A stretch of DNA of 64,000 bases from a virus, in IMG/VR virus record IMGVR_UViG_3300010354_000069, positions 8,244 through 72,243 of that record. One strand, 5' to 3'. Below are positions 543-38,300 of the stretch, one piece after another (positions within the stretch are counted from its first letter, which is position 1; each line of letters starts with the position of its first letter). The position numbers and the translations under genes are program-made. The notes below the pieces were generated by a model. It did not search any database. It had not been told where the DNA came from and saw only the letters and a program-made list of their open reading frames with translations.

Positions 543-1805
543 ATGACTGTGAAAGCAGTAGAACTAAAAAACCAAGCTGTCCTTACACTGCTTCGCCGGC
601 AACCCTTCATGTTTCACCTGATCACTCAGCTACGCTATGAAGAGACTGACAGTGTACCTACGGCTGCCGTCGTGTTTGACGGCCTGAATAACGAGAGCTG
701 GTTGAAGGTAAACCCAGACTTTGTAGAAAAGTTGTCTGCTCTCGAGCTTGAGGGCTTGCTGGCCCATGAACTCTTGCACGTGATGCACGAGCACACCCAC
801 TCACCGCACGTCCGTGAATGGGCTTGGAACATTGCAACTGATCTTGCAGTAAACACGGTTTTGCTCAAGCAGGGTTACGTGTTGCCGAGCGGTGGGCTTA
901 CCCCGCAAGGTGTTGCAGACAAACTCGCAGAGGATTCGGGACACCCGGTGGAAACCCCGCCCGAGCTGATGTCGGCTTACTGGTACTATCGCTGGCTTCA
1001 AGAGAATGCCAAGACCAACGAAGATAGCAAGGATAGTTGCGGTGGCGGCAAGTCAGAAACAGACGATACGCGGGACAACCAAGAGCAGGGTAACAATCAG
1101 TCTGGATCTTCACTGCAAGACCAAGCTGACCCACACGGTCACTGGTCTGACAGTGAAGGACAGCAGTCGCCCGAAGCTCGGGAACTTACCAAGCGCATGG
1201 TTGCCCAGCATGTGCAAAAGGCTAGCGAGAGCACTGCAGGTCGTCTTCCCGGTTATCTGGATTCTTTGGTCAATGAACTTTTGCGGGTGTTGGAAGAACC
1301 GTCCATGCGGTGGAACCAAGCCCTCAAGAAGTTCGTGGGTTTTAGAGCTGGCGTAAGTCTGAAGGCTAGCTGTGCCCGTACAAACAAGTACGGACAGATT
1401 CCCAAGATCCTGTTCAAGCCGTCTACCAAGTTCATGGTGTTCATTGATGTATCGGGTTCAGTTGACGACCAGCTGGCAGCAAAGTTCTTCAGTGAACTGG
1501 AAGGCTTGGCAAAGCAAGGCAATGAATTTGACTTGGCACAGTTTTCGATAGATGTCGTACCAATGGGAAGGTTTACCAAAAAACCTTATTACTCTCGCTT
1601 CATGAAAGGCGGCACTGACTTCAGTGCGCCATTCAAATTCATGCTGAAGAACAGGTTGTATAACAAGTACGACGGTGTAATAGTACTTACGGACGGAGAA
1701 GCTCCATGGCCAATGCCGGACGAACTTCTGCTACCATCCCTGTGGGTACTGAGCGCAGAACAGACTACCCCTGCACACATCAACACTATCGTCATCAAGG
1801 ACTGA
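543..1805 (+). CDS. DUF2201-like metallopeptidase plus vWA domain protein
   Basis: LAHELLH (HExxH), WNIATDLAVN, acidic linker, MIDAS DVSGS, GGTDF, LTDGE. Confidence 0.85.
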   Translation: MTVKAVELKNQAVLTLLRRQPFMFHLITQLRYEETDSVPTAAVVFDGLNNESWLKVNPDFVEKLSALELEGLLAHELLHVMHEHTHSPHVREWAWNIATDLAVNTVLLKQGYVLPSGGLTPQGVADKLAEDSGHPVETPPELMSAYWYYRWLQENAKTNEDSKDSCGGGKSETDDTRDNQEQGNNQSGSSLQDQADPHGHWSDSEGQQSPEARELTKRMVAQHVQKASESTAGRLPGYLDSLVNELLRVLEEPSMRWNQALKKFVGFRAGVSLKASCARTNKYGQIPKILFKPSTKFMVFIDVSGSVDDQLAAKFFSELEGLAKQGNEFDLAQFSIDVVPMGRFTKKPYYSRFMKGGTDFSAPFKFMLKNRLYNKYDGVIVLTDGEAPWPMPDELLLPSLWVLSAEQTTPAHINTIVIKD

Positions 1806-1816
1806 CAAATAACACC

Positions 1817-2080
1817 ATGCGGCGCTACACATTTGAATACGAAGTAACCACCGGTATCGATGACAGTTTTTTGTCTGGCGGTACGGTAATTGTAGAAGCA
1901 ACAAACCAAAACAACGCCGAGGTTCTTGGTCGCCGCAGAGTCCAAGAAACGGACAGGTATTGCGACTCGAGCATGGACCCTGTAATCACACTTACTCTGG
2001 AATCGGTAGAGGAAACGATAGATGTCTCAGCAGAGCCCGGCTCGAGTCTGCAAGCAAGCCAAGGAGTTGTATCCTACTGA
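1817..2080 (+). CDS. Hypothetical protein
   Basis: ATG at 1817 in the frame of ORF 1706..2080, filling the gap between the vWA and ATPase genes. Confidence 0.6.
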   Translation: MRRYTFEYEVTTGIDDSFLSGGTVIVEATNQNNAEVLGRRRVQETDRYCDSSMDPVITLTLESVEETIDVSAEPGSSLQASQGVVSY

Positions 2081-3191
2081 TACGCTCCTAAGGACGCTGC
2101 TTTACAGCAGAGCCTGCACCATAAAGAACCTGGATAATCCGGCAATCAACCCGGCCAGTATTGTAGTCAATGTCCAAGGTCACGCCGGCGTCGGCAAGAC
2201 TGCCATGATTCAGCAGTTAGCGCGAGACCTCAGAATTGGTTACGAAATTCTAAATGTCGGCGGCGTCACTGACGTCGCCGAAATCTTTGGTATCAGCCAC
2301 GTGAACCAGCTCACCGGGCGAACCGAAGCTACTCCGCCAGCTTGGTGGCCTCTGGACGAGCACAGCGAAGGTATCATCAACATCGATGACCTGACTCGTG
2401 CGCTTCCCCACGTCATTCAAGCGCTGCAGCAGTTCATCAACACGAGAAAGTTTCACAATCTGGTGCTGCCCAAGGGTTGGACCATTGCGGTCACCACCAA
2501 CCCGGACGACGGCGACTACAACGTGACGTCGGTGGACAACGCCTACGAGACGCGACTGGTCACCCTCGTCTACAACAGACCAGAAGAAGTGTTTCTCGAG
2601 CAACTCGAGAAGCAGGGCGTAGACGACATGGTCGCCAACTTCTGGCAGGTGCACCGTGAGCAACTCCGCATGCCCAGGTTGGAGCAAAAAGCACCGAAGG
2701 CCAACGACCGTACGCGCATGATCTTCAACCACCTGTACCCGTATTTGGCTAACGACCAAGATGCGCTGATTGCTACGGGTTCTGCGCTATTTGGCTACGA
2801 GTGGACTCAGGTGTTTCTGAGCTTTCAGAAGAACGATGACCAGCCGTTGAACCCCGACGAGATTCTGGAAATCTATGTCAATGACAGCAGCCTGAAGCAA
2901 ACCACCGAAAGGTACTTTGCTCAGGGCCGAAACGATTTGCTCAAGGTAAGTACTGAAAGATTGGTCCACCGCATGCGACAGGTCGTTGCTCTTACCAGTA
3001 ACAACTGGAAGAATATCTCTGCATTTCTGACAGATTTGCCACAGGATCTAGGATTTCATATGTATATGTCTTTGGTTCAGACAGGACAGCCGTCAGCTGA
3101 TTTGTTCAGAGCCAAGCTTATGGAATTCCCCGAACTTGCCACAAACTTTGTCAAACTTGCTGAAAGTATTCCAAAGGTAAGAAAGGAATAG
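2022..3191 (+). CDS. MoxR-like AAA+ ATPase
   Basis: Walker A GHAGVGKT, Walker B-like IINIDDLTRA, TTNP; adjacent to the vWA gene. Confidence 0.85.
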   Translation: MSQQSPARVCKQAKELYPTDTLLRTLLYSRACTIKNLDNPAINPASIVVNVQGHAGVGKTAMIQQLARDLRIGYEILNVGGVTDVAEIFGISHVNQLTGRTEATPPAWWPLDEHSEGIINIDDLTRALPHVIQALQQFINTRKFHNLVLPKGWTIAVTTNPDDGDYNVTSVDNAYETRLVTLVYNRPEEVFLEQLEKQGVDDMVANFWQVHREQLRMPRLEQKAPKANDRTRMIFNHLYPYLANDQDALIATGSALFGYEWTQVFLSFQKNDDQPLNPDEILEIYVNDSSLKQTTERYFAQGRNDLLKVSTERLVHRMRQVVALTSNNWKNISAFLTDLPQDLGFHMYMSLVQTGQPSADLFRAKLMEFPELATNFVKLAESIPKVRKE

Positions 3192-3201
3192 GAGACCAGT
3201 C

Positions 3202-3423
3202 GTGTCTGAGTGGAACCGTAATCGTTATGAGATGCAGCCTCATAATTTCAACGAAAAGTTCGGACCAAAGACCGCCGGCCACCCTACAGTAGGGCATCCC
3301 TGTGCCAAGTGCCGAGTACCGCTGGAATCCGGTGACTACACTACGCTGAACCCGGTGGACAACTACTCTGTAGAAGTCCACTGGGACTGCATCAACCCGA
3401 AGATGAAAAAGAAGAAGCAATGA
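3202..3423 (+). CDS. Small Zn-finger-like hypothetical protein
   Basis: CAKC...HWDC; AGGAG SD before GTG. Confidence 0.6.
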   Translation: MSEWNRNRYEMQPHNFNEKFGPKTAGHPTVGHPCAKCRVPLESGDYTTLNPVDNYSVEVHWDCINPKMKKKKQ

Positions 3424-3596
3424 CTCTGTTCGAAGACCTTTGTGAGCAACCAGATCCAATAGGTGTTTTGGCACGGGCTTGCAGTACCCTTGAAGAGCTT
3501 TATGAGCACTTGGACATACTGCTTATCAACGAGCCCAATCATCCACACTACATCGAACTGCTTATGCTCAAGACTGACATCGAGCGGACCTTGTAG
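3420..3596 (+). CDS. Hypothetical protein (58 aa, not in ORF track)
   Basis: ATGA overlap with upstream gene; MTLFEDLCEQPDPIGVLARACSTLEELYEHLDILLINEPNHPHYIELLMLKTDIERTL. Confidence 0.6.
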   Translation: MTLFEDLCEQPDPIGVLARACSTLEELYEHLDILLINEPNHPHYIELLMLKTDIERTL

Positions 3597-3599
3597 CGT

Positions 3600-3861
3600 C
3601 CTCGCGCGCACGCGCGCGGTCCAGCTATTGGTGAACTTCCCCCTAACTACTGCGTCCCCTCTCCCTCCTCTCCCCCAAAGCGGCGTTTCATAGGCAAGTA
3701 GCCATGCAGCGGCCAACCTTGGCGCACTTTACGTGCACGGAACAAGGGTAGAGGGGACGCAGAGCCGGTGCGGCCGCACCGGGGAGGAGTTGGATTTCCA
3801 GCTATTGGAGCCACTTCCACTACTGCGTTCTCTGCGTCCCCACGCCTTAACGCAGCAGCAT
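3600..3861 (-). ncRNA. Putative structured RNA (RNA2) with two imperfect direct repeats and an internal anti-repeat
   Basis: Repeats at 3621-3662 and 3798-3843; inverted copy at 3749-3764; palindrome CCGGTGCGGCCGCACCGG at 3765-3782; downstream of a promoter; no credible ORF. Confidence 0.5.
3621..3843. repeat. Imperfect direct repeat pair CCAGCTATTGG..ACTTCC..ACTACTGCGT..CCCC
   Basis: Copies at 3621-3659 and 3798-3841. Confidence 0.8.
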
Positions 3862-3866
3862 GCATG

Positions 3867-3894
3867 ACAATAGCATGCTCATTGCTCCTGTCAA
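3867..3894 (-). promoter_or_regulatory. sigma70-type promoter for RNA2
   Basis: Minus strand TTGACA-16 nt-TATTGT with an extended -10 TG. Confidence 0.55.
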
Positions 3895-3897
3895 GTC

Positions 3898-4015
3898 AAA
3901 AAAAAAAGAAGCCGGAAGCTCAACCAATGTGGGGACACAGAGCTGGTAGTTATTAGACCACCAGAGCGGGGAGCTTCCGACTTCTCTTGTTGGAACCTTG
4001 TGAGGGCGTCCAACA
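3898..4015 (-). ncRNA. Putative ~115-nt small RNA (RNA1)
   Basis: Own promoter; 5' hairpin; long stem AGAAGUCGGAAGCUC/GAGCUUCCGGCUUCU followed by U10; no ORF. Confidence 0.7.
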
Positions 4016-4020
4016 ACTAA

Positions 4021-4049
4021 ATCCTACACAGTAGCCTAGAGTCTGTCAA
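4021..4049 (-). promoter_or_regulatory. sigma70 promoter for RNA1
   Basis: Minus strand TTGACA-17 nt-TAGGAT, preceded by TGTG. Confidence 0.75.
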
Positions 4050-4120
4050 CGCGTCTCGGTCGGTCATGGTTGCAGGTGGTTGGGAATGTTGCCGCCGTTG
4101 CTTGAAAAGGAGTCCAGCTA

Positions 4121-4438
4121 GTGGGTGGTGAAGAGTTGGGTGAGGCGGTTGGCAAAGTGCTGGACCAACTGGCTTCCGTTCTGGCAGACTATCTGCATGT
4201 TGAAAGCAAGCTTCAGGTGCACGCCCTCACGTGGACACCGGAAGCAACGTCAATTTACATTGACGATCCTCAGTTGGCCGGACACATCACACGTCGAGTC
4301 ACTACCGAACTTGGTGACATTCAGGTAGTTGTGGACCACGCAACCCGCGGCCCCGTATCAGTGGAACTTATCCAATGCCCAATATCGAATACACGCTCGT
4401 CAGCGATAACGACATTGAAGACGTTGTCCAGTACCTGA
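4121..4438 (+). CDS. Hypothetical protein
   Basis: AAGGAG SD before GTG; overlaps the polymerase start. Confidence 0.65.
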   Translation: MGGEELGEAVGKVLDQLASVLADYLHVESKLQVHALTWTPEATSIYIDDPQLAGHITRRVTTELGDIQVVVDHATRGPVSVELIQCPISNTRSSAITTLKTLSST

Positions 4439-6399
4439 GCGGGGAATCGCTGCTGGCGCTGGATACGGAAACGTACAGAACGACCAAACCCTATCCCAGA
4501 GCCTACGACCTGAAGACGGAAAACCGCTTGTGGATTTCCGATCCTTTCATCAACAACATTCGGCTGGTACAGATTCGGTCACGTGACAGCGAAAGCTTCA
4601 TCTTTGACCTGATGGAGCTTTCTGGCGCAAGCACTGAACGGCTTCAGTGGTTGCTGGGGCAAAAGCACATTACTTGGTTGGGGCACAACCTCAAATTCGA
4701 TTGGCGCATGATTGCCGTCAACCTGGAAGTCGAACTTGAGAAGGTTTGGGACACCATGCTGGCAGCGATCACCATCGGCTACGCAATTGGCGACGGTGCC
4801 ATGTGGTCAAGAGGTGTTGGCCTCAAAGATGTCTGTCGCGACTTTCTTGACGTCAAACTGGACAAGACGGAGCAGAACAGTAACTGGGGCGCCAAGGAAC
4901 TGACAGCAAATCAGTACCAGTACGCAGCAAACGACTTGCTTTACCTGTTCAAGCTCTATGACGTACTGATCAAGGCAATCGAAGAAGAGTATGACATGCT
5001 TGGTGGAGTGCAGTTGGAAATGGAGCTGCTTCCGGCAGTAGCAGCAATGGAAATTGCCGGAATCGATTTTGATCTTGATCTGTACTACCGAGTGCAGAAA
5101 GCTGCCAAAGCTTATATTCCCAAGCTGGAAGAAGAGCTTTGCAAGTTTATCGGATGGCCCATGATTGCAGTACCGCCTCTTGAGCGGATAAAGACTGGGC
5201 GTAACTGGAAACCAAACCCAAAAAGCTTTGACGGTGAAGCAAAGAGTCCTCTGGATTCAAACCCTTTCATGCTCAAAGCGTTTCGGGATAAAGGTGTGGA
5301 AGTCGAGAACTTGCAGGGAAAGCACTTGGAAGAGTTGTCGGACAAGTACCCAATCCTGAAAAAGTTCAGTGACTACAAGGATCTTACCAAGCAGCTTGGG
5401 ATAGCCTACGATGCTTGGGTACACCCACTTACGGGCCGTATTCATCCCGAATTCAACCAGTCAGGCGCCGCCACCGGTCGTTTCAGCTGCAATAACCCCA
5501 ACTTGCAGCAGGTTCCAAAAACGGAAATCACGGACCCTCAGACGGGTGACAAACTCTGCTACCGCTACTGCTTCATTGCTCCTGATGGCCAAGAACTGGC
5601 TTCAGCCGACTACTCGGGACAAGAGCTACGCGTCATGGCAGTACTGTCCGGCGATCCCAACCTGATTCACATCCACAAGAACGAACCCGACTACGTCGAG
5701 GATCCAACGGGCAAGCTGGATGAATATGGCAAACCGGCCATGGTGAAGAACATGGGTGCAGATGTCCACGCAATGAGTTGCGAGCTGGTGTATGGTTCAG
5801 CAGGTATTACCAGATGGAATGCAAAGACTACGCCCTACCCGGGACTATCGGGCAAGACGTACAGAGACGTCATCAAGACCGTTGTCTACGGGCTGGCCTA
5901 CGGCAAGACTGCACCTGGTCTGTCAAAAGACATGGGTATCAGCATCGATGAAGCGGAAAACATCATCGAGTCCTTTTTCAGACCCTACCGTGTCCTTCAC
6001 CAGTGGTTGGAAAAGGTCGGCAAAGCTGCCGACGATACGAGATTAAGCCGATACGGTATACCAGAAGCTGGTATTACTCGTTGGCGAATGGTAAACTCGG
6101 ACAGGCACGAAGACAAAGGTGCTTTGAATCGAGCCGGCAAGAACACCCCCATTCAAGGATGCAGCGCACTCATGATGAAGAAAGCTTTGTGCAGCCTGAG
6201 AACGGTTGTACGAGAAGCTGGTGGAACAGTATGCGCTACGATTCACGACGAAGTTCTCGTCAGATATCCTATCGAACTACGGGACCAAGTGATGGCAGCA
6301 ATCGACAAGGGCATGACCGAAGGATCCAACGTATTCCTCCGAAATGTTGTCAACGATAAGTACGGTGTCGGCTGCGCCAAACACTGGTCAAAGGATTAA
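4375..6399 (+). CDS. polA: Family A DNA polymerase with 3'-5' exonuclease domain
   Basis: Exo motifs ALDTET, GHNLKFD, YAAND; ATGRFSCNNPNLQQVP; motif A ADYSGQELR; motif B RDVIKTVVYGLAYG; NTPIQG; motif C IHDE. Confidence 0.95.
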   Translation: MPNIEYTLVSDNDIEDVVQYLSGESLLALDTETYRTTKPYPRAYDLKTENRLWISDPFINNIRLVQIRSRDSESFIFDLMELSGASTERLQWLLGQKHITWLGHNLKFDWRMIAVNLEVELEKVWDTMLAAITIGYAIGDGAMWSRGVGLKDVCRDFLDVKLDKTEQNSNWGAKELTANQYQYAANDLLYLFKLYDVLIKAIEEEYDMLGGVQLEMELLPAVAAMEIAGIDFDLDLYYRVQKAAKAYIPKLEEELCKFIGWPMIAVPPLERIKTGRNWKPNPKSFDGEAKSPLDSNPFMLKAFRDKGVEVENLQGKHLEELSDKYPILKKFSDYKDLTKQLGIAYDAWVHPLTGRIHPEFNQSGAATGRFSCNNPNLQQVPKTEITDPQTGDKLCYRYCFIAPDGQELASADYSGQELRVMAVLSGDPNLIHIHKNEPDYVEDPTGKLDEYGKPAMVKNMGADVHAMSCELVYGSAGITRWNAKTTPYPGLSGKTYRDVIKTVVYGLAYGKTAPGLSKDMGISIDEAENIIESFFRPYRVLHQWLEKVGKAADDTRLSRYGIPEAGITRWRMVNSDRHEDKGALNRAGKNTPIQGCSALMMKKALCSLRTVVREAGGTVCATIHDEVLVRYPIELRDQVMAAIDKGMTEGSNVFLRNVVNDKYGVGCAKHWSKD

Positions 6400-6411
6400 G
6401 GAACAAAACCG

Positions 6412-7524
6412 ATGTACATCAATGTAGCCAGCGCCAGTGCTTTCGGAAAGAAGCTGGCGCTGGCCAACGCTTCGCTGAACGCAAAAGGCGAAACCAATCC
6501 CATCTGCGGAAGCATGATGCTGTCTACCGGTGCTGATGGCTTGGCGGTTACAGTTGCAAACACCAGCTCGCATCAGCTGAAACTGCACGCTCCAGCCCAC
6601 GTCAACATTCCGGGTTCGGTGCTTATTCCTGGCGATCACTTCACCAAAATCATCAACCGGCTTGGGGATCGTAGCGCGTCTTTAAAGGTCGAGAACAACC
6701 AGCTGGTTGCCATCACGTCTGACAACGACGTCTACAAGTTCGACCTGTTCCAAGGCGAAGCTGAAGACTTTCCGGTGGACAGTGACATTCCGCCGGTAGG
6801 TGCCGTAGTGGACGCAGACGGTTTCTCGGAAGCCTTGAAATCCGTACTCACAGCGGCGCTGGACGCCGAGCAGGACATCATCTTCAAGGCCGAGAACAAC
6901 ACGCTGTCCATCTACACCTCGGATTATCTGACTACTAAAAGCCGCACTCAACTGGTAAGTCAGAACTTTCCTTTCAGCTTCAGCGTACCGCGCAGTACTG
7001 TGGCAGCCGGGCGCATTCCTGACTGGTCCGGACCGGTTCAGATTCACGTGCGGTCTGATAAGGTGGTGCTTTCCCAAGGCGAAGAACATCTGATGATTCG
7101 TCGCGTGGGTCAGGCGGGGGACATCCAAACGATTGAAGAAGTACTTGGAGTTCAAGCTATTGGCCGTCTTGTTGTCAGTAGGCAGCAGCTTCAGTCAAAA
7201 GTCCACATCGTGGCCATTGGCAAGCAAACGTGTACGCTACAAGTCAAAGGCAAGAGCGAGAAGAACCTTCTGATTGAAGCGGAAAACGCCGGTGTTGGTG
7301 GGCACAAACAGGTAATTGCCATTCAAGGCAGCATTACTGGTGTGACAAGCAGCGTCAAAGTCGATGTCTCGCTGCTTGAAAAGGCGCTTAAGACTGTAGA
7401 TGGCGATGACTTGCTAGTCGACTATGTAGACTACACGGGAGATGGCAGCAGCATCAGCTTGCGGTTGGCTAATGACGCCAATCCTGAAAAGAAGCAAACG
7501 TTGTTGTTGCCTCTTCAGAGCTAG
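6412..7524 (+). CDS. dnaN: DNA polymerase III beta-clamp-like protein
   Basis: 370 aa; NPICGSMML, PGSVLIPG..F.KII, EDFP; next to the polymerase. Confidence 0.7.
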   Translation: MYINVASASAFGKKLALANASLNAKGETNPICGSMMLSTGADGLAVTVANTSSHQLKLHAPAHVNIPGSVLIPGDHFTKIINRLGDRSASLKVENNQLVAITSDNDVYKFDLFQGEAEDFPVDSDIPPVGAVVDADGFSEALKSVLTAALDAEQDIIFKAENNTLSIYTSDYLTTKSRTQLVSQNFPFSFSVPRSTVAAGRIPDWSGPVQIHVRSDKVVLSQGEEHLMIRRVGQAGDIQTIEEVLGVQAIGRLVVSRQQLQSKVHIVAIGKQTCTLQVKGKSEKNLLIEAENAGVGGHKQVIAIQGSITGVTSSVKVDVSLLEKALKTVDGDDLLVDYVDYTGDGSSISLRLANDANPEKKQTLLLPLQS

Positions 7525-7537
7525 GAGGTAACCGGCT

Positions 7538-8923
7538 GTGTTGCCGGACAACTGGTTGGTAAACCCACGTGTCAGAAAGCTTCGACAGAAGTTTCTGACC
7601 GTACCAAGGACGAGATTCCTTGACCTTGCCGAGCACATGTTCGGTACGGTAGACTTGGATCGACAGCAGCTGGGCGCACTCGTCCAGCTGCTCACCGACT
7701 CGGAACATTGGCCCTCCATCCAGAGGGCCCAAATGACCACCAGCAGTATCGAACAAGCAGAACTTGGCGAAGCACTGCTTGATGCGCCAAAAGATGAGTG
7801 GCTTCCAGAAATATTGCCGCTACTGCTGGAGCTGCAGCCAGGTTCCAGCATGCTGGACTTAGGTTGTCATCAGGGACACGGTGCACAAGTACTGACCGGA
7901 GTCAGTTTCTACGAAGGTCACGACCTGAACGCCAAGCGGGTTCAAGTTGCCAAGCGCCTGTTTCCGGAGCAGCAGTTCCAAGTCACGGATGTAGCCCGGT
8001 GGCTGGCTTACGAACCAAGATCCAGCTATTCGCTGGTTTTGGTCCATCTGCCGGCAGATCACTACACAGTGCATGGACCTTGTCTGGAAACCCAGCGTGG
8101 TCCGGACATCACCTTGGACACCGCAATGCTCGAGTGGGGTGCAAAGTGTTGCACGCGTGGCGGCATTCTGGTGGGGCTGGTCAGCCGCGAAAGCAACTTG
8201 GAGCCTATCAGCCAGTGGTTACGGAACAACGGCACTCCGCTGATGGTTTCTGCTGTAGGAAACACCACGCTTGTTGTCTACAGGCACGGTATTCGCATGC
8301 GCGACTACCCGACTATAGATAATGCGTTTGCCAACTACGAAGAACTTACTGAATTTCTCATGGCCAAAGGATACCTAGCAAGAACACCTGTTTGCGCTGA
8401 TGATCCTCGACCTTTGGAAATCTCTGACTGGGGTATCGAACTCGTAGCACAAAGTACCGAAGAGTTTTCTGGTACAGCAGAGACATTGCTCTATAAGAGC
8501 AAGCATGCTGCCCGCATTCGTTGGCAGAATGACCGAGCTGCGCTCGGCTGGGCTATGCATCAAGCTTTCAAAGCTACGCGCGAAGAGAGCTGGAATAAAA
8601 CCGTTGAACGCTTTAACCAACGTTTGGGCATCAACGACTATCTGCAGTATCGGTCAAACAGTCTTCACGACTTGCTCAACCTATCCCAAGAGTTTGCAGT
8701 AGCGGAAACCCCGGAGTTGAAGGGCCATGCCAGCAAATTGACCAAGCGGTATCACAGGTTACGGACACCGTACCCGGAGCGGGCTACTGTAGAAAATCGC
8801 TACTATAGTTTGGGCCCTGGCGACAAACTACAGCGTAATCAAGAACTCTGGTCGGTGCAGTTTTCGGAACCAGACTTCTCGGGCAAGAACCCGCCAAAGC
8901 TTCATCTCAGTAAGGTCGAATAA
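7538..8923 (+). CDS. Class I SAM-dependent methyltransferase domain protein
   Basis: MLDLGCHQG, GHDLN, CTRGGILV. Confidence 0.65.
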   Translation: MLPDNWLVNPRVRKLRQKFLTVPRTRFLDLAEHMFGTVDLDRQQLGALVQLLTDSEHWPSIQRAQMTTSSIEQAELGEALLDAPKDEWLPEILPLLLELQPGSSMLDLGCHQGHGAQVLTGVSFYEGHDLNAKRVQVAKRLFPEQQFQVTDVARWLAYEPRSSYSLVLVHLPADHYTVHGPCLETQRGPDITLDTAMLEWGAKCCTRGGILVGLVSRESNLEPISQWLRNNGTPLMVSAVGNTTLVVYRHGIRMRDYPTIDNAFANYEELTEFLMAKGYLARTPVCADDPRPLEISDWGIELVAQSTEEFSGTAETLLYKSKHAARIRWQNDRAALGWAMHQAFKATREESWNKTVERFNQRLGINDYLQYRSNSLHDLLNLSQEFAVAETPELKGHASKLTKRYHRLRTPYPERATVENRYYSLGPGDKLQRNQELWSVQFSEPDFSGKNPPKLHLSKVE

Positions 8924-12276: not shown

Positions 12277-13365
12277 ATGACATCAACACTAGCCCTTGAA
12301 AGCCGACCAGTCAGCTGGTCAACTCTGGTTGGACAAGACATTCCTCGCAAGGTCTTGTCCAACTCCATCATCAGCAATGACATTAAACCCGGCTACTTGT
12401 TTAAGGGGGCAAGCGGCTGCGGCAAAACGTCAGCAGCCTTGCTGTTTGCAAAACGGCTGAATTGCCTGCAGCCAGATGGCGCGGACCCCTGCAACGCGTG
12501 TACTTCGTGTGCGAGCATCGACAAAAACCTGAGTCATGACGTGAAGTACGTAGACGGAGCTGCCGACCGCTCAGTGATGTTTGTTAGAGATGTGCTTAGA
12601 CCATTCCTGACAACGACACCAATCGGCGGCAAGCACAGAATCGCTATAATCGATGAGGCGCACTTGTACAAGCAGGATTCCATCAGTGCATTTCTGACAC
12701 TGCTGGAACAACTGCCAAAAATGGCACCAAAATCATTGGTAATTCTCTGCACTACCGAAGGTGACCAGATTCCCGTTGCGATTCAAAACCGCTGTCTCTC
12801 ACTGAACTTTGCTCCCATCAGCACAGAGACCTTGGTTGATGCCATGCACAAGTTTACCGGTGAAGACAAAGCGGCACTAAAGGAACTGGCGGCTGCCTCT
12901 TGTGGCAGCTTTAGGACCATGTGGTCTTTCATGGAAGTCTGGGAACATACCGGTGAACCCTTGACCGAAGATCTTGTTATGCGAATGCTTGGTGGAATTA
13001 CCAAGTCAGAGCGTAACAACCTTTGGCGTTTGCTGAAAAACCGAAGGCTAGACCAAATACTCAGTCTGTGGCAAGCCTGGATGAAGCGAGGAGTAAATCC
13101 TACGGTTCTTGGTGCTTATATGTTGAAGGACCTTATTCACATGGCAGCAGCAGCGCCTGAAGCTGCAAACTGGTCTACAGCAATAGGAGCACTGAGTGCT
13201 GTACAAGTAAGTGGCACAGAATCCGCGTGGTTGCCCGCACTATACACATTATGCGGGCTGCCACTGGACTGCGAGAATGCCCAAAGGGTTGCACCAGAGG
13301 AACGGCAGCCCGTTTCACAAAGTACTGACAAGTTGCTGACCCGCTTGGCCTTCTTTGGTGCTTGA
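12277..13365 (+). CDS. dnaX: DNA polymerase III gamma/tau-like clamp-loader ATPase
   Basis: RP..W..LVGQ, YLFKGASGCGKT, LNC..PCNAC.SC, IIDEAH, LCTTE, IQNRC. Confidence 0.9.
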   Translation: MTSTLALESRPVSWSTLVGQDIPRKVLSNSIISNDIKPGYLFKGASGCGKTSAALLFAKRLNCLQPDGADPCNACTSCASIDKNLSHDVKYVDGAADRSVMFVRDVLRPFLTTTPIGGKHRIAIIDEAHLYKQDSISAFLTLLEQLPKMAPKSLVILCTTEGDQIPVAIQNRCLSLNFAPISTETLVDAMHKFTGEDKAALKELAAASCGSFRTMWSFMEVWEHTGEPLTEDLVMRMLGGITKSERNNLWRLLKNRRLDQILSLWQAWMKRGVNPTVLGAYMLKDLIHMAAAAPEAANWSTAIGALSAVQVSGTESAWLPALYTLCGLPLDCENAQRVAPEERQPVSQSTDKLLTRLAFFGA

Positions 13366-13406
13366 CACTCCCATCATTCAGAAGGATGATGGGAGTGCTT
13401 TTCTTT
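13366..13406 (+). terminator. Intrinsic terminator-like hairpin, overlapping a TTGACA at 13362
   Basis: CACTCCCATCATTC-AGAA-GGATGATGGGAGTG then CTTTTCTTT. Confidence 0.65.
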
Positions 13407-13416
13407 GGAGGCTACC

Positions 13417-13611
13417 GTGGCACAGCTACAGACAATTCTGACCAACTGGAAGAATGCCGCAACCCCGGTTTCGATTGTTCTTGCAGGTAATGTCGGCGTT
13501 TATGGAACTATCACGGATGACGGCGTTGGGCAGGATAGCATCGTGGTAAATCACGCTAATGCAGATACCGTCATTCCAAAGGCAGCAATTGCTTACCTAG
13601 CTAAGCGCTGA
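13417..13611 (+). CDS. Hfq/Sm-fold-like small protein
   Basis: LQTIL...PVSIVL....VYGTI...VIPKAAI aligns by eye with Hfq LQDPFL...PVSIYL..GIKLQGQI...MVYKHAI; GGAGG SD before GTG. Confidence 0.55.
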   Translation: MAQLQTILTNWKNAATPVSIVLAGNVGVYGTITDDGVGQDSIVVNHANADTVIPKAAIAYLAKR

Positions 13612-13838
13612 TGTCTCAGGGCTTCAACTTTCAGCGGCGCAAGCGTACCGCCGTCAGTTGTAGAAAGTGCGGTGAACACGTATGGATTTTTATCACAGAC
13701 TCGGAACTGTATAGAGACCGGTTCAGGCAGTGCGCCACCTGTGGAAAGATCTATCGAATGGACATGACGCCGTTAGACTTGAACTATGCTTGGCGGGACG
13801 GCATACCAATGCCGTTTGAAGTGAGGGAAGACCAGTGA
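13611..13838 (+). CDS. Zinc-ribbon protein
   Basis: CRKCG...CATCG. Confidence 0.65.
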   Translation: MSQGFNFQRRKRTAVSCRKCGEHVWIFITDSELYRDRFRQCATCGKIYRMDMTPLDLNYAWRDGIPMPFEVREDQ

Positions 13839-14167
13839 CTGTAGTAACCAATGAACTGATGGCTGCCTATGCAAATGAGCTGGTCATCGACCTTGAGCGT
13901 ATTTCGCGCTACAGGTTTGCTGCCTATTTGGTTTCGCCCCTGCGCACTACAGTTGCAGCTCACTTCGTTCGTCTTTATCAGCAAGAAAAGATCGAGTTCG
14001 AGCAAGCGCTCAACTACGTCGACATCCTTGAAGGCGAAACATCCTCTATTTCCATTCAACTGCGTCTGCCCAACCGCGCCGCAGTTACTAGCATCATTGC
14101 AAGCGCACTGATCAAGAGCGGATTCCGCCAAGCTGAAAGCGGCGACACGCTTGTGCTCGTTCTATGA
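13835..14167 (+). CDS. Hypothetical protein
   Basis: GTGA-coupled ORF within the operon. Confidence 0.65.
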   Translation: MTVVTNELMAAYANELVIDLERISRYRFAAYLVSPLRTTVAAHFVRLYQQEKIEFEQALNYVDILEGETSSISIQLRLPNRAAVTSIIASALIKSGFRQAESGDTLVLVL

Positions 14168-14280
14168 AGATTGACGAGGACCACGTTGAAGTAAGTATTA
14201 CTGAAGAAGTAGTACTCGTTCTATTTGGTCTTTTACTTGCAAGTACTCTTGTACTATACTTGACAGTATATGGGGCTTGA
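14164..14280 (+). CDS. Small membrane peptide (38 aa, not in ORF track)
   Basis: ATGA overlap; MKIDEDHVEVSITEEVVLVLFGLLLASTLVLYLTVYGA. Confidence 0.5.
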   Translation: MKIDEDHVEVSITEEVVLVLFGLLLASTLVLYLTVYGA

Positions 14281-30303: not shown

Positions 30304-30332
30304 TTGACCACCCACCACGCTGCTTATAGAAT
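30304..30332 (+). promoter_or_regulatory. sigma70 promoter upstream of HU
   Basis: TTGACC-17 nt-TAGAAT. Confidence 0.75.
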
Positions 30333-31821: not shown

Positions 31822-32313
31822 ATGCAGTTTTACGTCAGCGCTTTAGGACCTATAGACACAGGCCGCCCGCTTCACGCCGACGCCGGCAAAACCTTCAACC
31901 ACGTAGGCATTCCTATCTGGTTTACTAGGGGTAGTTTGCACCGTGCTGTACACGTTCTAAATGGACCCTACCACGAACCTACTGGACTTTTCGTGGTGCA
32001 ACCTAACGAAGTGCTGGTGTACTTTGAGGTAAAGCAGCCCCCAGCAGGTTCTTTGCAAGAGCAGACCATGGGACTGCGCCCGGTTACCTACGCAATTCTT
32101 AGTGTCGACCGCAACTTCGTGCATAGCAACAGTTTGCTGTATCAATCAGTAGATCCTGATGCAGACTTTGAAAAAGACGACGATATCGCCGTCTGGTTTG
32201 GAATGACCTTTCCGGCAACTATAGTAGGTAGATTCAGAAAGCCAACGGATACTTTTCAGCCTCCTAAAGAAACTCGTGGCCACATGTTGAAGGACTCCAA
32301 CCTCTACAACTAG
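31822..32313 (+). CDS. Hypothetical protein, last gene of the + arm
   Basis: AAGGA SD; stop overlaps the giant gene stop. Confidence 0.7.
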   Translation: MQFYVSALGPIDTGRPLHADAGKTFNHVGIPIWFTRGSLHRAVHVLNGPYHEPTGLFVVQPNEVLVYFEVKQPPAGSLQEQTMGLRPVTYAILSVDRNFVHSNSLLYQSVDPDADFEKDDDIAVWFGMTFPATIVGRFRKPTDTFQPPKETRGHMLKDSNLYN

Positions 32314-35300
32314 TTGGCTCGCTTTCGAGCAGCACTAGGAATATCTCTACTACCGCTGCGACCCTGTCTGTGATAGTCACGGTCCAGCGTGTCATCCTTG
32401 CCCTTCTTGCCAGCATGCTCTTGATGGATGACCACCTTCTTGCCCTGTGGGTCAACCTCTACCTTAGAAGTACGGCGCTGAGAGTGGTCTTTAGTGCTAC
32501 CCGTCGGCACATCCTTTGCCCCGCTCTTGACACCACCGTGATTAGCCTTGGTATCGACAACAACAGTTGCATTCTTTGACTTGGCGGGGGCTTCTTTACC
32601 ATAGAACACGTTTTGAATGAACTCATCAACGTTTTCAATAACGTCATCGAGCACGTTACGTTCATACTTGTCGGATACCACCGCTTCGACTTCGATTGAA
32701 CCGCTTGAAGAAACGGTACCAGGTAGCGCTTGTTTGCTTGTGCTTGAAACACGTGCAAGCTCTTTAGTGCTACGAACGCTTAGTTCAGCAGCGGATTTTC
32801 CAACACGATACTTGGCGTCAATATGAGCATCAACAGATTTTACAAGGTGCTCGTTAATTTTTCCGTAAGCCCAAATATTTGCAAGAACAATACCAATACC
32901 TGCAAAGGTTCCTGCGATAGCTCCAGGAAGAGCACCAACACCCCCAGCTAGTGTACCGGCGGCAGCGCCTGTCAAAGCCGTCTTTACAACGAAACCAGCA
33001 GCGGCACTAGCCAAGCCAAGAATGCCTATAGTGCTAAGACCGGCCACACCGTGCCCCAAAGCACGCTCTCTAGCAACTCTGTCAGTACCCGCCTCCCTGT
33101 ATTCAACAAAGGTCTTGGATGACTCTACGACCACCATCAAAGGCAACGCAGCTTTGCTAGCTACTGCGGCAAGTTTCGGTGCCCACGTTGTAGCACCAAA
33201 TCGCTTTGTAACAAGAGGAACCATGCGTCCGTAGCCTTCAAGTGCTGCTTGTACAGCAAACAATCCAGTGCTTGCCTTAAAGAAGACTTCCTGCTCAAAA
33301 GGCATTTCGTACCCTTGTTTATGCAGCTTTGCCTTTTGGTCTTCAAAATCCATCCAACTTTTTACAGACATGGCAAGCATGAATAGAGGATTGCCAAGCT
33401 GTTGGCTGAACTCATAACTCTTCATGATCGATGTGTTGGCTAGCCGTTGTTGGTAGATATCTCTGCGGATTCGAGCCTCTGCCTGTTCTTGGCGCGCCAT
33501 AGGACGCTCTCTGGAAGTCTTGTCCAACCTTGAACGAATCTCTTCCTTGCGCTCCACTGTACGTTGAATTCGCTCTTCAGCCTCCTGCAACCGCTCAAGA
33601 GGTTTGCCGGCAGTACCCAAGCGTGCCCAAATATCTTGCTTCAATTGTTTTTGACGGTTTATTTCTTCCTCACGCTCAATCAGGGTTTGCAAAGGACGCT
33701 CACCCCGTGTTGCCTCCGTACGGCTACGAACTTCTTCGCGTCTAGCTTCTGCTACCGACTCGACTGCTCTGCGCTGCTTACGGGCGGCAATGAGCTCGCG
33801 CTGCCTATTTGCCAGAGTTTCTTGGTCAAGGCTATTCAAGCTGCGAGGCGTGGGGTTCTTGCGGAAGTCCCTGACAGCCCTACCCAGAACTAAGCGGCTT
33901 TCTTCATCCGCGGGTACGAAAGTACGCTTGGTGTAGCTAAAAGCTTGTGGAGTCTTTACTGGCTCGTCCGTCACGCTACGCTGAGCGCTCACAACGGGAT
34001 TGATGCTTGAAGCAGCAATGTCTTTTGATAGACGTGCTACTACTGCAACAAGCGATCTACCAGCTTTCAAGTATCTGTGTACGGCTTTTTCAACCAACTC
34101 GTCTGGATTTACAACGATTAGCTGGTCTACGTTACGCTCAACAGCACGCCAGCCTCTACCCAGTAACATAGAATAGCCGGCATAACCAAGACTGGCAATT
34201 GTGCGTGCAAACAATCTGTCAGTAAAGAGGTAAATGTCCCTAGCACCTGTAGATGCAGCCCTGTAAGCAGCTTCTCTAGCTACGATGTATGTCCTACCGT
34301 CACGTTCAATAGTGGTATTGCCAAGGTGCTTAAGAGCGTCACCGTTATCAAACATGCTAGGCTTGTTATACTTGTCGACAAGCAATTCAGCCGCTATGCC
34401 CGCAAATAGCTCTCTAATACCTGTGGACATGAGCTCATGAATAGTAAAAGAAGTAATACCTGGTTTTTCTGATCTACGTCGTACTTCCTCAAGAGTACGC
34501 TCTGCGTTAGAGCGCAGTTCTAGGTAGGTCTGCTCTGCAAGTTTTCCGTTAGGGTCTTGAACACCCATTTCCCTGTACATGGACTTGATGATTTCTCGCC
34601 ACTCCTGCTCATAAACTTCAGGAGCTGCCCTGAAATCCATGATTCTTGCGCCTGGCTTAAAACCGAAAGTCTGAACGTAGTGTGCGCTGCTGTAGTGCCC
34701 CCAACCGCTAGGTTTAATTCCTCGAACACCAGAGTAATCTGTGGCATCGTTTCTGGAAGGTGTCACGTAGAACCCGGCCCCTTCGGCCCAAGTGCCAGAT
34801 ACGTCCAACTCTGGAATTCCGTAAGGACGATAGTCCTGACCGTGGTAGTAAGCCCTGCTTGTAAGCCTGTCGGATATAGCTTGCTTTTCCGCAGTAAAAT
34901 CAACTACACCAGAGCGGGTTGTGTGTGCATCGCGCGCAAGTGTTGAAGTTTCTGGCGCCGCTGTACGAAGCTCCATGTCAAGTAGTTCGTGCGGTAGCAG
35001 ATTTGAAGCACTTTCAGTCTTTGGCAAAGACCTCCACTCGTATTTGGCCCTCTGTTCAGCCGCTCGAGTATCTGCCCGCATTTTCAGCATCAGCCTTAGC
35101 ATGCGAGCTTCTTTTTGAGCAAACCTGATGAGACTGCTGATAGCTCCAGGTTGACTGCTTGCTCTTTGCAACCGGTCTCTGTACGTCTGGTAAGCAAGAC
35201 GGCCAAGAACCGGTGCGGTTGCAAGTAGACTAGTGGCCAGAGTAGCAAAGTGCTCGGGCGTAATCAGAGTGCCAAAACCACTGGAAGCTTCTGCGGGCAT

Positions 35301-38300
35301 TGTAGCGGCTGCAACCAAACCCAAGCCAGTAAAAGCAATGGACATTAGTCGTCCGGAGCGCCCGCCAAGAATGCCTTTACGCTCTGCCGCTCGTTTAGCC
35401 AAACGGCTTACACGGTCTGCGGTACTAGCAGCAACGTGTGAGTAAGGCTCTATATTCCTTGAATACTCGGCGGGTATTACTTCTGGTAGGCTGGTCTCAG
35501 AAATATTGAGAACCTTCGCTATCTTAGTTTTATAGATGTTTATAAGCTCTACAGCTTTGTCCATCTCAACAGAATCTTGTTTAGGAGCAAATTCTTGAAC
35601 TAACCGCTTGGTATAAAAGTCAAGTCGTAAATCCATATCTCTGGTAATGTTACCAGCTGCATGCTTGCGTAGAATAGCATTTTTAATAAGGTCAACGCGC
35701 CTGTCTGTAAAGTATATCTGTTCGTCAGTAAGTCCAGCTGCATCCCTGAGGAAGTTGTACATAGTACGCTGTTCTGGATAAGCAGAGAAAACACTAGTAG
35801 TAGAGTTTACGTTAATACGCAACCTGCGGATAAGCTCTGGCATTACATTTATTGCTCTAGTTTCTACAGCAGCTTCTTCAAGGGCTAGTTCAGGCGCCGT
35901 AGCGTAATGCCCTTTTATATCGTAATCAAAGCCGAATCTAGCTAGAGCGCGCCTACGCGGGCTGTACTCGTGATGCACTTCGTGAGAAAGGATATGAAGA
36001 GTCGTTAACAAGCGTTCCAAAGACTTTTCTCTATATTCAAATGAAGCTACGCCAAGTTTATTTCTACTCTGACGTGCGATATCTAGTAGATACGGAGTAT
36101 ACTTATTTCTAACATTGATGTAAGCCATCATACCGCGCGGAGTGTGCATACCATCCCAGCTAAAAGGCATATTGGTCACTCCAATATCATTCAGCAGAAT
36201 AACAGGAAGGGGTAGGATTCCTCTTCTTTGTTCTCTAGGTAAAGTACTTCTAACAGCCTTTGCAGTTTCGTACAAAGCAAATTGCATAGCAGTAAGTTGT
36301 TTTGCAGTATCAACAAAGTGTCTTAGGCTTGCAACCGATCTTGCACTTATAGTTTTCAAAAAATCTATTGTTTGTCTAGGTTTCAACACAAGGCTCGCAG
36401 TAAGCGCAGTAGCGGTAGCCCCAAAAACACCAGCTGCAGCAAATTTCAGGTAAGGTACTAAAGTGTTAATCAGACTAGGGTAATGCGTAGTAATTTTACT
36501 AAGGTCGGGCTCCACCACAGTTTCAATCCTGAAGTGGGTTGCCGCTTCTGCAGGCATTCCAGCGGCTAGTGCAAGGCCTACACCAAGTAACCCTAGTGCC
36601 AAAGGCTTGGCACCACGCTTGAGGCTTTGACGAGCCTTCTCAAGAAGCTTTGGTTGTAGAGCTTTGAGTGTGCTGCGAACGTAAGTGAAACCTCTTGCTA
36701 CACTGACAGAAGATTTGTCTATGGTAGTAGTAAACAAATGGTGCGGTTTACGAGCAGAAGCAATAATGTCAGAAGAAGCTCTGTACCTGAGTAGCTGTAC
36801 TGTGTATTCACTTAAATTTGCTAAGTTCAAAGCCCCCAACCGCTTTATACGTTTACCTGGAACAACAGCATAAACAGTTGTTTCTCTCGCTTCTTTGGAG
36901 TCCATTAATACAAGCTGACCATTTTCGTTGAAAATGGTATTACGTACTCCCGCGTATCCTTGGCTTACAATACTGTCTCTAAGAGCTGTATGAACTGCAA
37001 CCTCAGAGTTGAAGTTTGGTGGTAGACCTTCAGCAGCAGTAAAACGAGATGTCATAAACTCTACTGCGCTCTTATAAAAGTATTCTACATTGTGTTTGTT
37101 GTCGGGAGTATCAAGAGCGTTAAGCAGACGCAGGAGCTCCGCATTGAACTTACTGCTAGTTTTTTCACTATCATTTACGTGAAGCAGCATAGTCTCAAAA
37201 GTGTGCTGCAACATTGTGCGTACTTCAGTCTTGTACACTTCAGCAGGCTGAGCAAAGTCTATAAACTGTGCAGTAGGGTTTAGCCTTACTTTTTGAACGA
37301 TACCAAACTGCTTTTTGGCCTTTGTTACAAGGGCTCGTACAGTCTTGCCTGCTGAGTTTACAGTAAGACCCGCGTAGTCAAGGGCTTGGCCAACCGTTTC
37401 AGCCATGTAGTAACCACGGCCGCCCCACCAAGAGCCGTGTAAAGAGGCTTCAGGAATACCAGAAGGTGCATGAGTTTGACCGTGGTAGTACGTACGGTTG
37501 GTAATCTGCCTTGAGATATCTTTCTTCAAAGTGGTGAAATCCAAAGCGGTGCGCGTAGGCTCGGCCTCGGAAGCGGGAACAACACTGGACAGAGGTTGAT
37601 TCTTATTGTTACCCCCAAAAAGCTTCTTGACTCCTTCCCAGCCAAGAATTCCGGCTGCAGAGAAACCAAGCTGACTCATCAGCAAAGCGTTGTCTGCGAG
37701 CGATGTGACGTGATGCCCAAACGGTAGCGTAGCTGCTTCAGCGGGCATTCCAGCGGCTAGAGCCAGACCTGTTCCTACCAGCAGGCCGAAGATACCGGAA
37801 GTGCGCTGCCCCCGCTCCCGCCTAGCTTTCTCTAGCTCAGCATCAATAACCGTCACCATAGAACTATCGTTTAAAATTTCGAAAGAAGGTAAGTCACGTC
37901 GTGCAATAGAGCTCAAAGACCTGTGTAGCCTATCAAGAGCTTTTAAACTTTGTTTATAGCTGCCTACAGGACGTCTAATGCTAAATCTGCTGCTATAGGA
38001 AGAAGGTACAAACACGTTTACAGCGTAGTTATTGATAACCTTTCTTATTCTTGTAGCTTGGCTCCGGTTAAGGCGAAACTTCTCTGCAATTTTTTCACTT
38101 AGTAGTTTTACACGATCCTCTTCGACATACAAAGTATCGCTTGTAATATCTGTAAGTGAAAGCAAGGCCCTTGTAAACATTCTTTGAAACTTATAGGTAG
38201 CGACTAAAGGAGCGGTACTTACAGTATGTCCAGTTAGCCTTCCTACAAATTCCCTAAGATGCTCTACGCTACCAATCTCAACAGTAGCTTCTTCTAAGGC

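Follow-up and report, generated by a model that had tools for sequence, protein, structure and literature searches.

What does a large phage encode in a 525-nt gap (3597-4120) between a plus-strand 58-aa ORF (3420-3596) and a 105-aa ORF (4121-4438) that sits ahead of its DNA polymerase gene? A sequence-only reading of this locus had proposed a standalone small RNA of ~115 nt on the minus strand, which would act in trans as an antisense regulator of a neighbouring repeated RNA. The present analysis takes up that proposal and adds what was absent from it, namely a promoter (P2, 3894-3867) for the neighbouring RNA (RNA2), a copy of the antisense element within RNA2 (A, 3747-3764), the hairpin form of the target R1, and the finding that RNA2 has no conserved ORF.

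The window, i.e. the whole 64,000-nt stretch analysed, comprises bases 8244-72243 of a 72-kb viral record with a completeness estimate of 35%. Plus-strand genes fill bases 543-32313 and include those for a DUF2201/VWA protein and an AAA ATPase, as well as a replication block with a family-A DNA polymerase (polA), a sliding clamp, UDG, SNF2 and other helicases, a clamp loader, a primase and ribonucleotide reductase. Both small ORFs beside the gap (58 and 105 aa) are conserved at the protein level in the relative L081 (see below), and the plus strand is therefore the coding strand around the gap. Searches of Pfam and PHROG returned no family for the flanking small proteins of 73, 58 and 105 aa. 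Of the small genes flanking the module, the 73-aa ORF (3202-3423, plus strand) is conserved best (86.5% nucleotide identity to L081), and its L081 homologue carries a CxxC and later an HWEC motif. Elsewhere in the window, the DUF2201 metallopeptidase-like/VWA protein (543-1805, plus strand) matched phrog_1314, 'HNH endonuclease', with an E value of 1e-46, a label that looks doubtful when set against the Pfam result, and a single open frame of 5866 aa occupies 32310-49910 on the minus strand. No tRNA genes were found in the window and the 8.2 kb preceding it, which together make up the 72 kb known of this phage, and no integrase or repressor was noticed on casual, non-systematic inspection of the same 72 kb.

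A polA protein search yielded metagenome relatives at 91-35% identity, two of which were compared as DNA. These phages occur at freshwater sites. The first relative, L081, is a metagenome contig of 5.3 kb that runs collinear with 1686-7022 of the window at 79% nucleotide identity. G001 is a complete viral genome of 205,180 nt with terminal repeats and 62.8% G+C, whose polA is 53% identical to that of the window.

The predicted small RNA gene and RNA2

The minus strand of the gap carries, in this order, promoter P1, the small RNA, promoter P2 and RNA2, with the ends of both RNAs placed from promoters, terminator and conservation. P1 (4049-4021) has the TTGACA-17-TAGGAT arrangement that the sequence-only reading had reported and scores 10/12; its hexamers are invariant in the window, L081 and G001, and its spacer diverges. 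Four sites in the 64-kb window are promoter-like at 10/12, and two of these are the tandem minus-strand pair P1 and P2, which both come close to the sigma-70 consensus. The other two lie on the plus strand at 13362-13390 and 30304-30332, the former opening a 900-nt stretch (13365-14270) without an ORF of at least 130 aa.

The small RNA (~115 nt; 3898-4012, minus strand) is predicted to form a 5' hairpin and a long terminator stem around an inner hairpin (3943-3964) and the antisense element S (CUCUGUGUCCCCAC; 3929-3942), followed by a U10 run (3898-3907). This T10/A10 run is the sole homopolymer of at least 8 nt in the 64-kb window. Folding bore out the 5' hairpin and the U10-closed stem described earlier: the 115-nt minus strand reached -47.5 kcal/mol (z -5.9; 0/200 shuffles as good), compared with -41.1 kcal/mol (z -2.9) for the plus strand of the same region. 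The folds beat shuffles in all three phages, with z-scores of -5.9, -6.8 and -5.8 in the window, L081 and G001, respectively. Between the window and L081, 65% of the small RNA columns are identical, and despite the 35% sequence change the L081 fold reached -51.5 kcal/mol. Double-sided changes affect 5 of 25 predicted pairs in this comparison, and in L081 the terminator stem remains paired even though one C-G pair has become G-C and 3 bp have been inserted on both sides. The inner hairpin shows two double-sided stem changes around an invariant loop region, GUCUAAUAACU (3948-3958), an 11-nt motif that occurs once and has no partner anywhere in the window. This hairpin is missing from the small RNA of G001, which is likewise terminated and folds at -59.3 kcal/mol, so that the architecture of the small RNA differs between the two lineages.

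P2 (3867-3894, minus strand) begins 4 nt past the U10 run and reads TTGACA-16-TATTGT with an upstream TG; in the three-way alignment of window, L081 and G001, CTTGAC and CATGnTA are invariant. It is followed by RNA2, a predicted non-coding RNA of ~265 nt (3597-3860, minus strand), whose 5' end was set by P2 and whose 3' end by a conserved GC-rich motif. RNA2 folds at -132.9 kcal/mol (z -5.2), compared with -115.4 kcal/mol (z -4.1) for the plus strand, and both sides changed in 7 of its 73 predicted pairs between the window and L081. Its 5' hairpin (3819-3859, three double-sided changes) has a GGGG apical loop and presents R1 (GUGGGGACGCAGAG; 3830-3843), ~20 nt from the 5' end of RNA2. The 4-bp inner stem of R1 covaries with G001 included (CG/CG/UA and GC/CG/CG). 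A second G-rich target, R2 (GGGAGAGGGGACGCAG, then UAGUUA; 3644-3665, with the G-rich site itself at 3650-3665), lies near the 3' end, and between R1 and R2 lies element A (CUCUGCGUCCCCUCUACC; 3747-3764), an internal S-like copy complementary to both. Four GGGGAC-type motifs fall within 300 nt, in both orientations. With one mismatch allowed, the motif GGGGACGCAG occurs seven times in the window; four occurrences are within the gap, and the other three compare with 3.9 expected by chance. A third CCAGCTAGTGG copy, over the start of the 105-aa ORF (4112-4124), was dropped as it is absent from L081.

A coding role of RNA2 was considered and rejected because a 2-nt indel in L081 interrupts its sole ORF, a 72-aa frame (3647-3865), and short frames are not conserved; those past R1 differ between the window and G001 when compared by eye. 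No conserved toxin ORF of the type I or type III toxin-antitoxin kind was found downstream of or overlapping the RNAs, nor any regulated gene downstream of RNA2 that is conserved across the window and G001. In the window, RNA2 runs into the 3' end of a convergent plus-strand gene, with no co-oriented gene after it.

Within the gap, the alignment of window and L081 is a mosaic. Two blocks are invariant, one of 44 consecutive columns (3777-3820) that holds GGAAGU..CCAAUAGCUGGA, and one of 66 consecutive columns (3594-3659) that holds the second GGAAGU..CCAAUAGCUGGA copy together with the GC-rich motif (3600-3619), of which GCGnGCGCGCGAnGA is kept in G001. The blocks are in direct orientation, both are more conserved than the flanking genes, and the second ends at the stop codon of the 58-aa ORF. 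The remainder of the gap is ~60-65% identical (small RNA 65%, RNA2 middle 63%). Blocks of 44 and 66 nt are conserved far beyond the needs of RNA-RNA pairing and are unexplained by a two-RNA model. They fit no RNA-RNA model and suggest a bound factor, for which they are a likely site.

Relatives and relocation of the module

The G001 copy was located by a scan for promoter-like sites and ORF-free gaps and then by reading the sequence. It lies on the plus strand at L187:3210-3700, with its parts in the same order: a TTGACA-18-TAGGAT promoter, the terminated small RNA, a TTGACG-18-TAGGGT promoter with upstream TG, and an RNA2 of ~270 nt in which the GGGG-loop hairpin is equally far from the start and which also has a G-rich R2 and the GC-rich motif GCGnGCGCGCGAnGA. 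The fold of this RNA2 does not rise above shuffles (z -1.4; 19/200 shuffles fold as well). A covariance model of the small RNA, built from two sequences, recovered the window's own copy only and missed that of G001, whose homology thus rests on anatomy and short conserved motifs. A combined R1 and R2 pattern had G001 as its sole match.

The module is inverted between genes in the window and co-oriented upstream of 32 tRNA genes in G001. These form an array on one strand (L187:3958-7783) between the module and the polA region. Directly behind the module, G001 has a third promoter-like site, TTGACA-18-TACTGT, on the plus strand (L187:3687-3945, ~83687-83945), followed by ~210 nt that end in a hairpin (GCCCGGCA..UGCCGGGC) plus UUCUUCUU right before the first tRNA; this stretch is possibly a further small RNA or a short-ORF transcript.

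Other searches gave coverage or no match. At ~90% likeness, the DNA run X2 (in a 41-kb contig) covers 3331-4173 and X5 covers 3761-4173; these data concern coverage only. In both runs the stretch matching 4173-4409 has the same length and is too diverged to align at 80% likeness, as is 3260-3331 in X2 alone. These stretches are fast-evolving parts of the 105-aa and 73-aa ORFs, and the gap between them is conserved enough to align. The only RNA run found, X6, contained a fraction of 0.09 of the sampled words over 2000-8000; nothing from it aligned to 3000-5000, which speaks neither for nor against expression. A blastn search of phage records for the module gave no match, and neither did a scan of viral contigs with the polA protein alone or a scan with P0006. 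The pattern GGAAGT..CCAATAGCTGGA had one unrelated viral match and 17 genome matches, and by blastn against all collected loci only L081 was homologous; the three matches of GTCTAATAACT..GTCCCCA were all unrelated. No description of the module was found in the main text of papers by full-text search.

Predicted pairing between the small RNA and RNA2

The complementarity from which the antisense proposal started, 14 bp with one G-U, was confirmed between S (3929-3942) and R1 (3830-3843) in the window. The homologous S x R1 helix was the top contiguous helix between small RNA and RNA2 in each of the three phages, with lengths of 14, 14 and 13 bp and starts at RNA2 positions 20, 22 and 21 in the window, L081 and G001, respectively. 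In the window, 1 of 300 shuffled small RNAs gave an equal or better helix; the S x R1 helix was matched by 3 per 300 in L081 and by 5 per 300 in G001. The contiguous-helix statistic was used for this comparison, and full-length RNAduplex gave long duplexes no better than shuffles.

In the three full sequences, counted from the unchanging core GUCCCC:GGGGAC, the helix has 13 positions in common, and every one of them is paired in each phage. Variation is confined to four (window, L081, G001): position -1 is UG, UG and UA; position -2 is GC, UG and CG; position -3 is UA, CG and CG; and position -6 is CG, CG and UG. On the opposite strand, each wobble pair would turn into an A-C mismatch, so that what is constrained is the RNA of this strand and not duplex DNA. 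The covariation in related phages that had been named as a check is present, and these compensatory changes support the proposed trans pairing with the repeated neighbour. The S x R1 match, kept by paired mutations in three phages, points to what would be a conserved two-RNA device. In G001 the predicted duplex extends to ~22 bp and spans the entire R1 hairpin. S itself can adopt a small hairpin that mirrors R1, with a CCCC(A) loop, a mirrored geometry typical of antisense pairs that start by loop-loop contact.

S can also pair with R2. In the window, this involves 10 bp and a colinear UAACUAC:GUAGUUA helix over a 6-nt bulge, in L081 7 plus 9 bp, and in G001 7-9 bp. The sequence-only reading had further proposed that the segments UAACUAC, CCAGCU and AUUGGU..GAGCUUCC pair with other parts of the repeats in permuted order. 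All are present and somewhat enriched: six Watson-Crick helices of at least 6 bp were counted between small RNA and repeats, compared with a shuffle mean of 2.0 (7/500 shuffles reach 6), a count that is inflated because the two repeats share motifs. Most are not conserved, CCAGCU and AUUGGU being absent from L081, and GAGCUUCC falls inside the terminator stem. The permuted, multi-segment pairing is not supported: only UAACUAC:GUAGUUA persists in L081, and it is colinear with S x R2.

Element A matches R1 over 12 bp and R2 over 16 nt at 94% in the window. The duplex energies of A x R1 and A x R2 are -33.2 and -45.5 kcal/mol in the window and -30.8 and -36.2 kcal/mol in L081. In L081, A changes in step with R1, and S and A share the same derived bases. 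The counterpart of A in G001 is a mere C-rich stretch and no S-like copy. In this phage another segment of the small RNA, AACUGGCGU, finds matches of 9 and 8 bp in the two repeat blocks, which hints at a second, lineage-specific contact.

Mechanism, known systems and alternative explanations

The anatomy of the module, its conservation, its covariation and its strand are established in silico, and on balance we favour, with some confidence, the reading that a group of large phages carries it as a self-contained module of two RNAs, of which the small one acts on RNA2. Both RNAs would then be made and bind each other, and binding would switch the state of RNA2. A host-type promoter, P1, would drive the ~115-nt small RNA, which would end at its intrinsic terminator, and a second host-type promoter directly behind it, P2, would drive the ~265-nt non-coding RNA2. 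S, as a CCCC-loop hairpin, would pair in trans with R1, the GGGG-loop hairpin ~20 nt from the RNA2 5' end; contact would probably start loop to loop and extend to 13-22 bp. S might also pair with R2 near the RNA2 3' end. Because A would pair in cis on RNA2 (window, L081), best with R2, the small RNA would compete with this intramolecular alternative and may re-fold or destabilise RNA2. Our best guess is that the switch would set the fate of RNA2: an end at the conserved GC-rich motif on the one hand, extension or processing on the other. A self-contained unit is the simplest reading because the internal order of the module is kept while its place and orientation change, which also weakens cis-antisense and operon-leader roles.

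The closest logic, by analogy, is that of the P4 CI RNA, and the module also resembles P1 C4 and IsrK. The immunity RNA of satellite phage P4 (CI RNA, with seqA, seqB and seqC) directs one antisense element against an upstream and a downstream site of an untranslated transcript, and it is cut from the leader by processing (PMC4825925). One antisense element facing two flanking sites was found in the window and L081 but not in G001. The likeness to P4, already drawn in the sequence-only reading, proved apt and closer than was seen there, because in these two phages RNA2 itself carries an S-like element, A, flanked by R1 and R2, and S is a second copy of it. Unlike the P4 RNA, however, the small RNA has its own predicted promoter and intrinsic terminator in place of processing. 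In P4, pairing terminates transcription ahead of replication genes, whereas no co-oriented gene follows RNA2 in the window, and a promoter and tRNA genes follow it in G001. The two systems share no sequence or model similarity.

With C4 of phages P1 and P7, the module shares a phage small RNA whose short exposed elements face duplicated sites in a neighbouring transcript. C4 antisense RNA is an Rfam family, and its targets cover the ribosome-binding site of the gene ahead of the antirepressor; here, in contrast, there is no Rfam match at the thresholds used and no conserved ORF or ribosome-binding site. In ColE1 RNA I/RNA II and in plasmid kissing-loop pairs, the antisense RNA comes from the opposite strand of its target. 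The likeness to these lies in complementary stem-loops that allow a loop-loop start and an extended duplex, and in a target with alternative folds, but here the genes for the small RNA and RNA2 follow one another on one strand and do not overlap. The small RNA differs from lambda OOP in that it lies wholly inside the gap and overlaps no neighbouring gene, and in that the G001 module is co-oriented with its neighbours. In the Gifsy-1 prophage, a short terminated RNA, IsrK, shifts a longer transcript of the same locus between alternative structures in trans (PMC4825925). The short and long forms of IsrK share one promoter and their switch opens a ribosome-binding site, whereas the present module has two promoters and no ORF. 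Finally, small structured transcripts of obscure role, some with their own start sites, have been mapped in virulent and jumbo Pseudomonas phages such as phiKZ and PAK_P3 (PMC10914365). Those candidates come from transcript mapping and are described there without partner or mechanism; the present small RNA, by contrast, is a sequence-based prediction whose partner has covariation behind it.

The earlier reading could not assign the small RNA to a known family, and Rfam agreed, with no match at gathering thresholds in the 64-kb window. At E values up to 10, the region 3400-4300 gave five weak matches (miRNA, snoRNA and Atu_C7 models), far below gathering scores, and a search of the G001 module gave tRNAs and weak unrelated matches, none over the module itself. 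Four features set the module apart from its nearest analogues: the small RNA has a predicted promoter and terminator to itself, its partner is non-coding, no gene lies downstream, and no model matches.

Instead, the two RNAs could be subunits of an RNA complex, structural or catalytic, or of an RNA-protein particle, which we regard as improbable. S x R1, S x R2 and A with R1 or R2 would then be assembly contacts, possibly between several molecules, and the invariant blocks would be protein-binding or tertiary-contact sites. Such a complex would account for blocks of 44 and 66 nt that exceed antisense needs, and two G-rich sites with one C-rich site on RNA2 (window, L081) would allow chains or rings. 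The G001 module, moreover, abuts the 32-tRNA array, and phage RNAs of the large ornate kind, GOLLD and ROOL for example, tend to neighbour tRNA arrays. However, no Rfam family was found even at permissive thresholds, the G001 RNA2 fold is unremarkable, and a small RNA whose architecture varies by lineage fits a simple antisense element better than a fixed assembly. We give less credence to an RNA-primed replication origin under antisense control of the ColE1 RNA II/RNA I kind. RNA2, which has G-rich runs at R1 and R2, would stay hybridised to the template, the small RNA would block priming by changing the fold of RNA2, and the directly repeated invariant blocks would be initiator-binding sites; inversion of the module would be tolerated. 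Its place suits this idea, directly upstream of the polA, clamp, helicase and primase block in the window and ~10 kb upstream of polA in G001. Yet the cumulative GC skew of G001, a weak indicator in phages, has no turning point at 83 kb and its minimum at ~140-145 kb, no initiator gene was found, the two RNA genes, unlike those of ColE1, do not overlap, and the G-U wobbles speak for constraint on RNA-RNA helices and not at the DNA level.

The same wobbles bear on the very improbable case that no functional RNA is made and that the locus consists of protein-binding or cruciform repeats in DNA, their covariation reflecting concerted evolution. The copies differ exactly where RNA tolerates G-U (UG and GU pairs), promoter hexamers and the terminator with its U-run have been kept, folding is better on one of the two strands, and stems unrelated to the repeat also covary. 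In favour of DNA-level repeats are the clustered GGGGAC-type motifs in both orientations, invariant blocks that suggest protein recognition, and the derived bases shared by S and A in L081, as gene conversion could give. It is hardly credible that both RNAs act mainly as cis-antisense RNAs against a read-through plus-strand operon mRNA, lambda OOP-like, and so uncouple the upstream genes from the polymerase genes. In the window the RNAs do oppose all flanking genes, and no plus-strand terminator is evident in the gap; but this cannot be the conserved role because the G001 module is co-oriented with its flanking genes and tRNAs, and cis action would not select for S x R1 covariation.

Taken together, a two-RNA module with the small RNA acting on RNA2 remains our preferred reading. 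There is nonetheless a real chance that the module is further removed from phage antisense-RNA control than a variant of it. It is unlikely that it is a conserved heteromeric RNA device, either a multi-RNA particle or a gate of RNA-primed DNA replication, rather than regulator and target. To such a particle, RNA2 would bring two G-rich docking hairpins plus, in the window and L081, the internal C-rich copy; it would associate with the small RNA, perhaps also with other RNA2 molecules, and a phage or host factor would be bound by the blocks of 44 and 66 nt. If true, a particle or replication gate of this kind would be a new class of phage RNA machine.

The module has persisted through a divergence that leaves the polymerases 53% identical, a change in G+C from 51% to 63%, relocation and inversion, and this speaks for an important role that does not depend on its neighbours. 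In temperate elements, P1 and P4 among them, immunity is set by antisense control, with short exposed elements directed at duplicated sites. On the preferred reading, the same antisense logic would now be found in large phages with a full set of replication genes. To our knowledge, the non-coding RNAs of large phages are almost wholly uncharacterised, and the module offers among them a concrete candidate RNA-RNA pair that is testable with loop and compensatory mutants.
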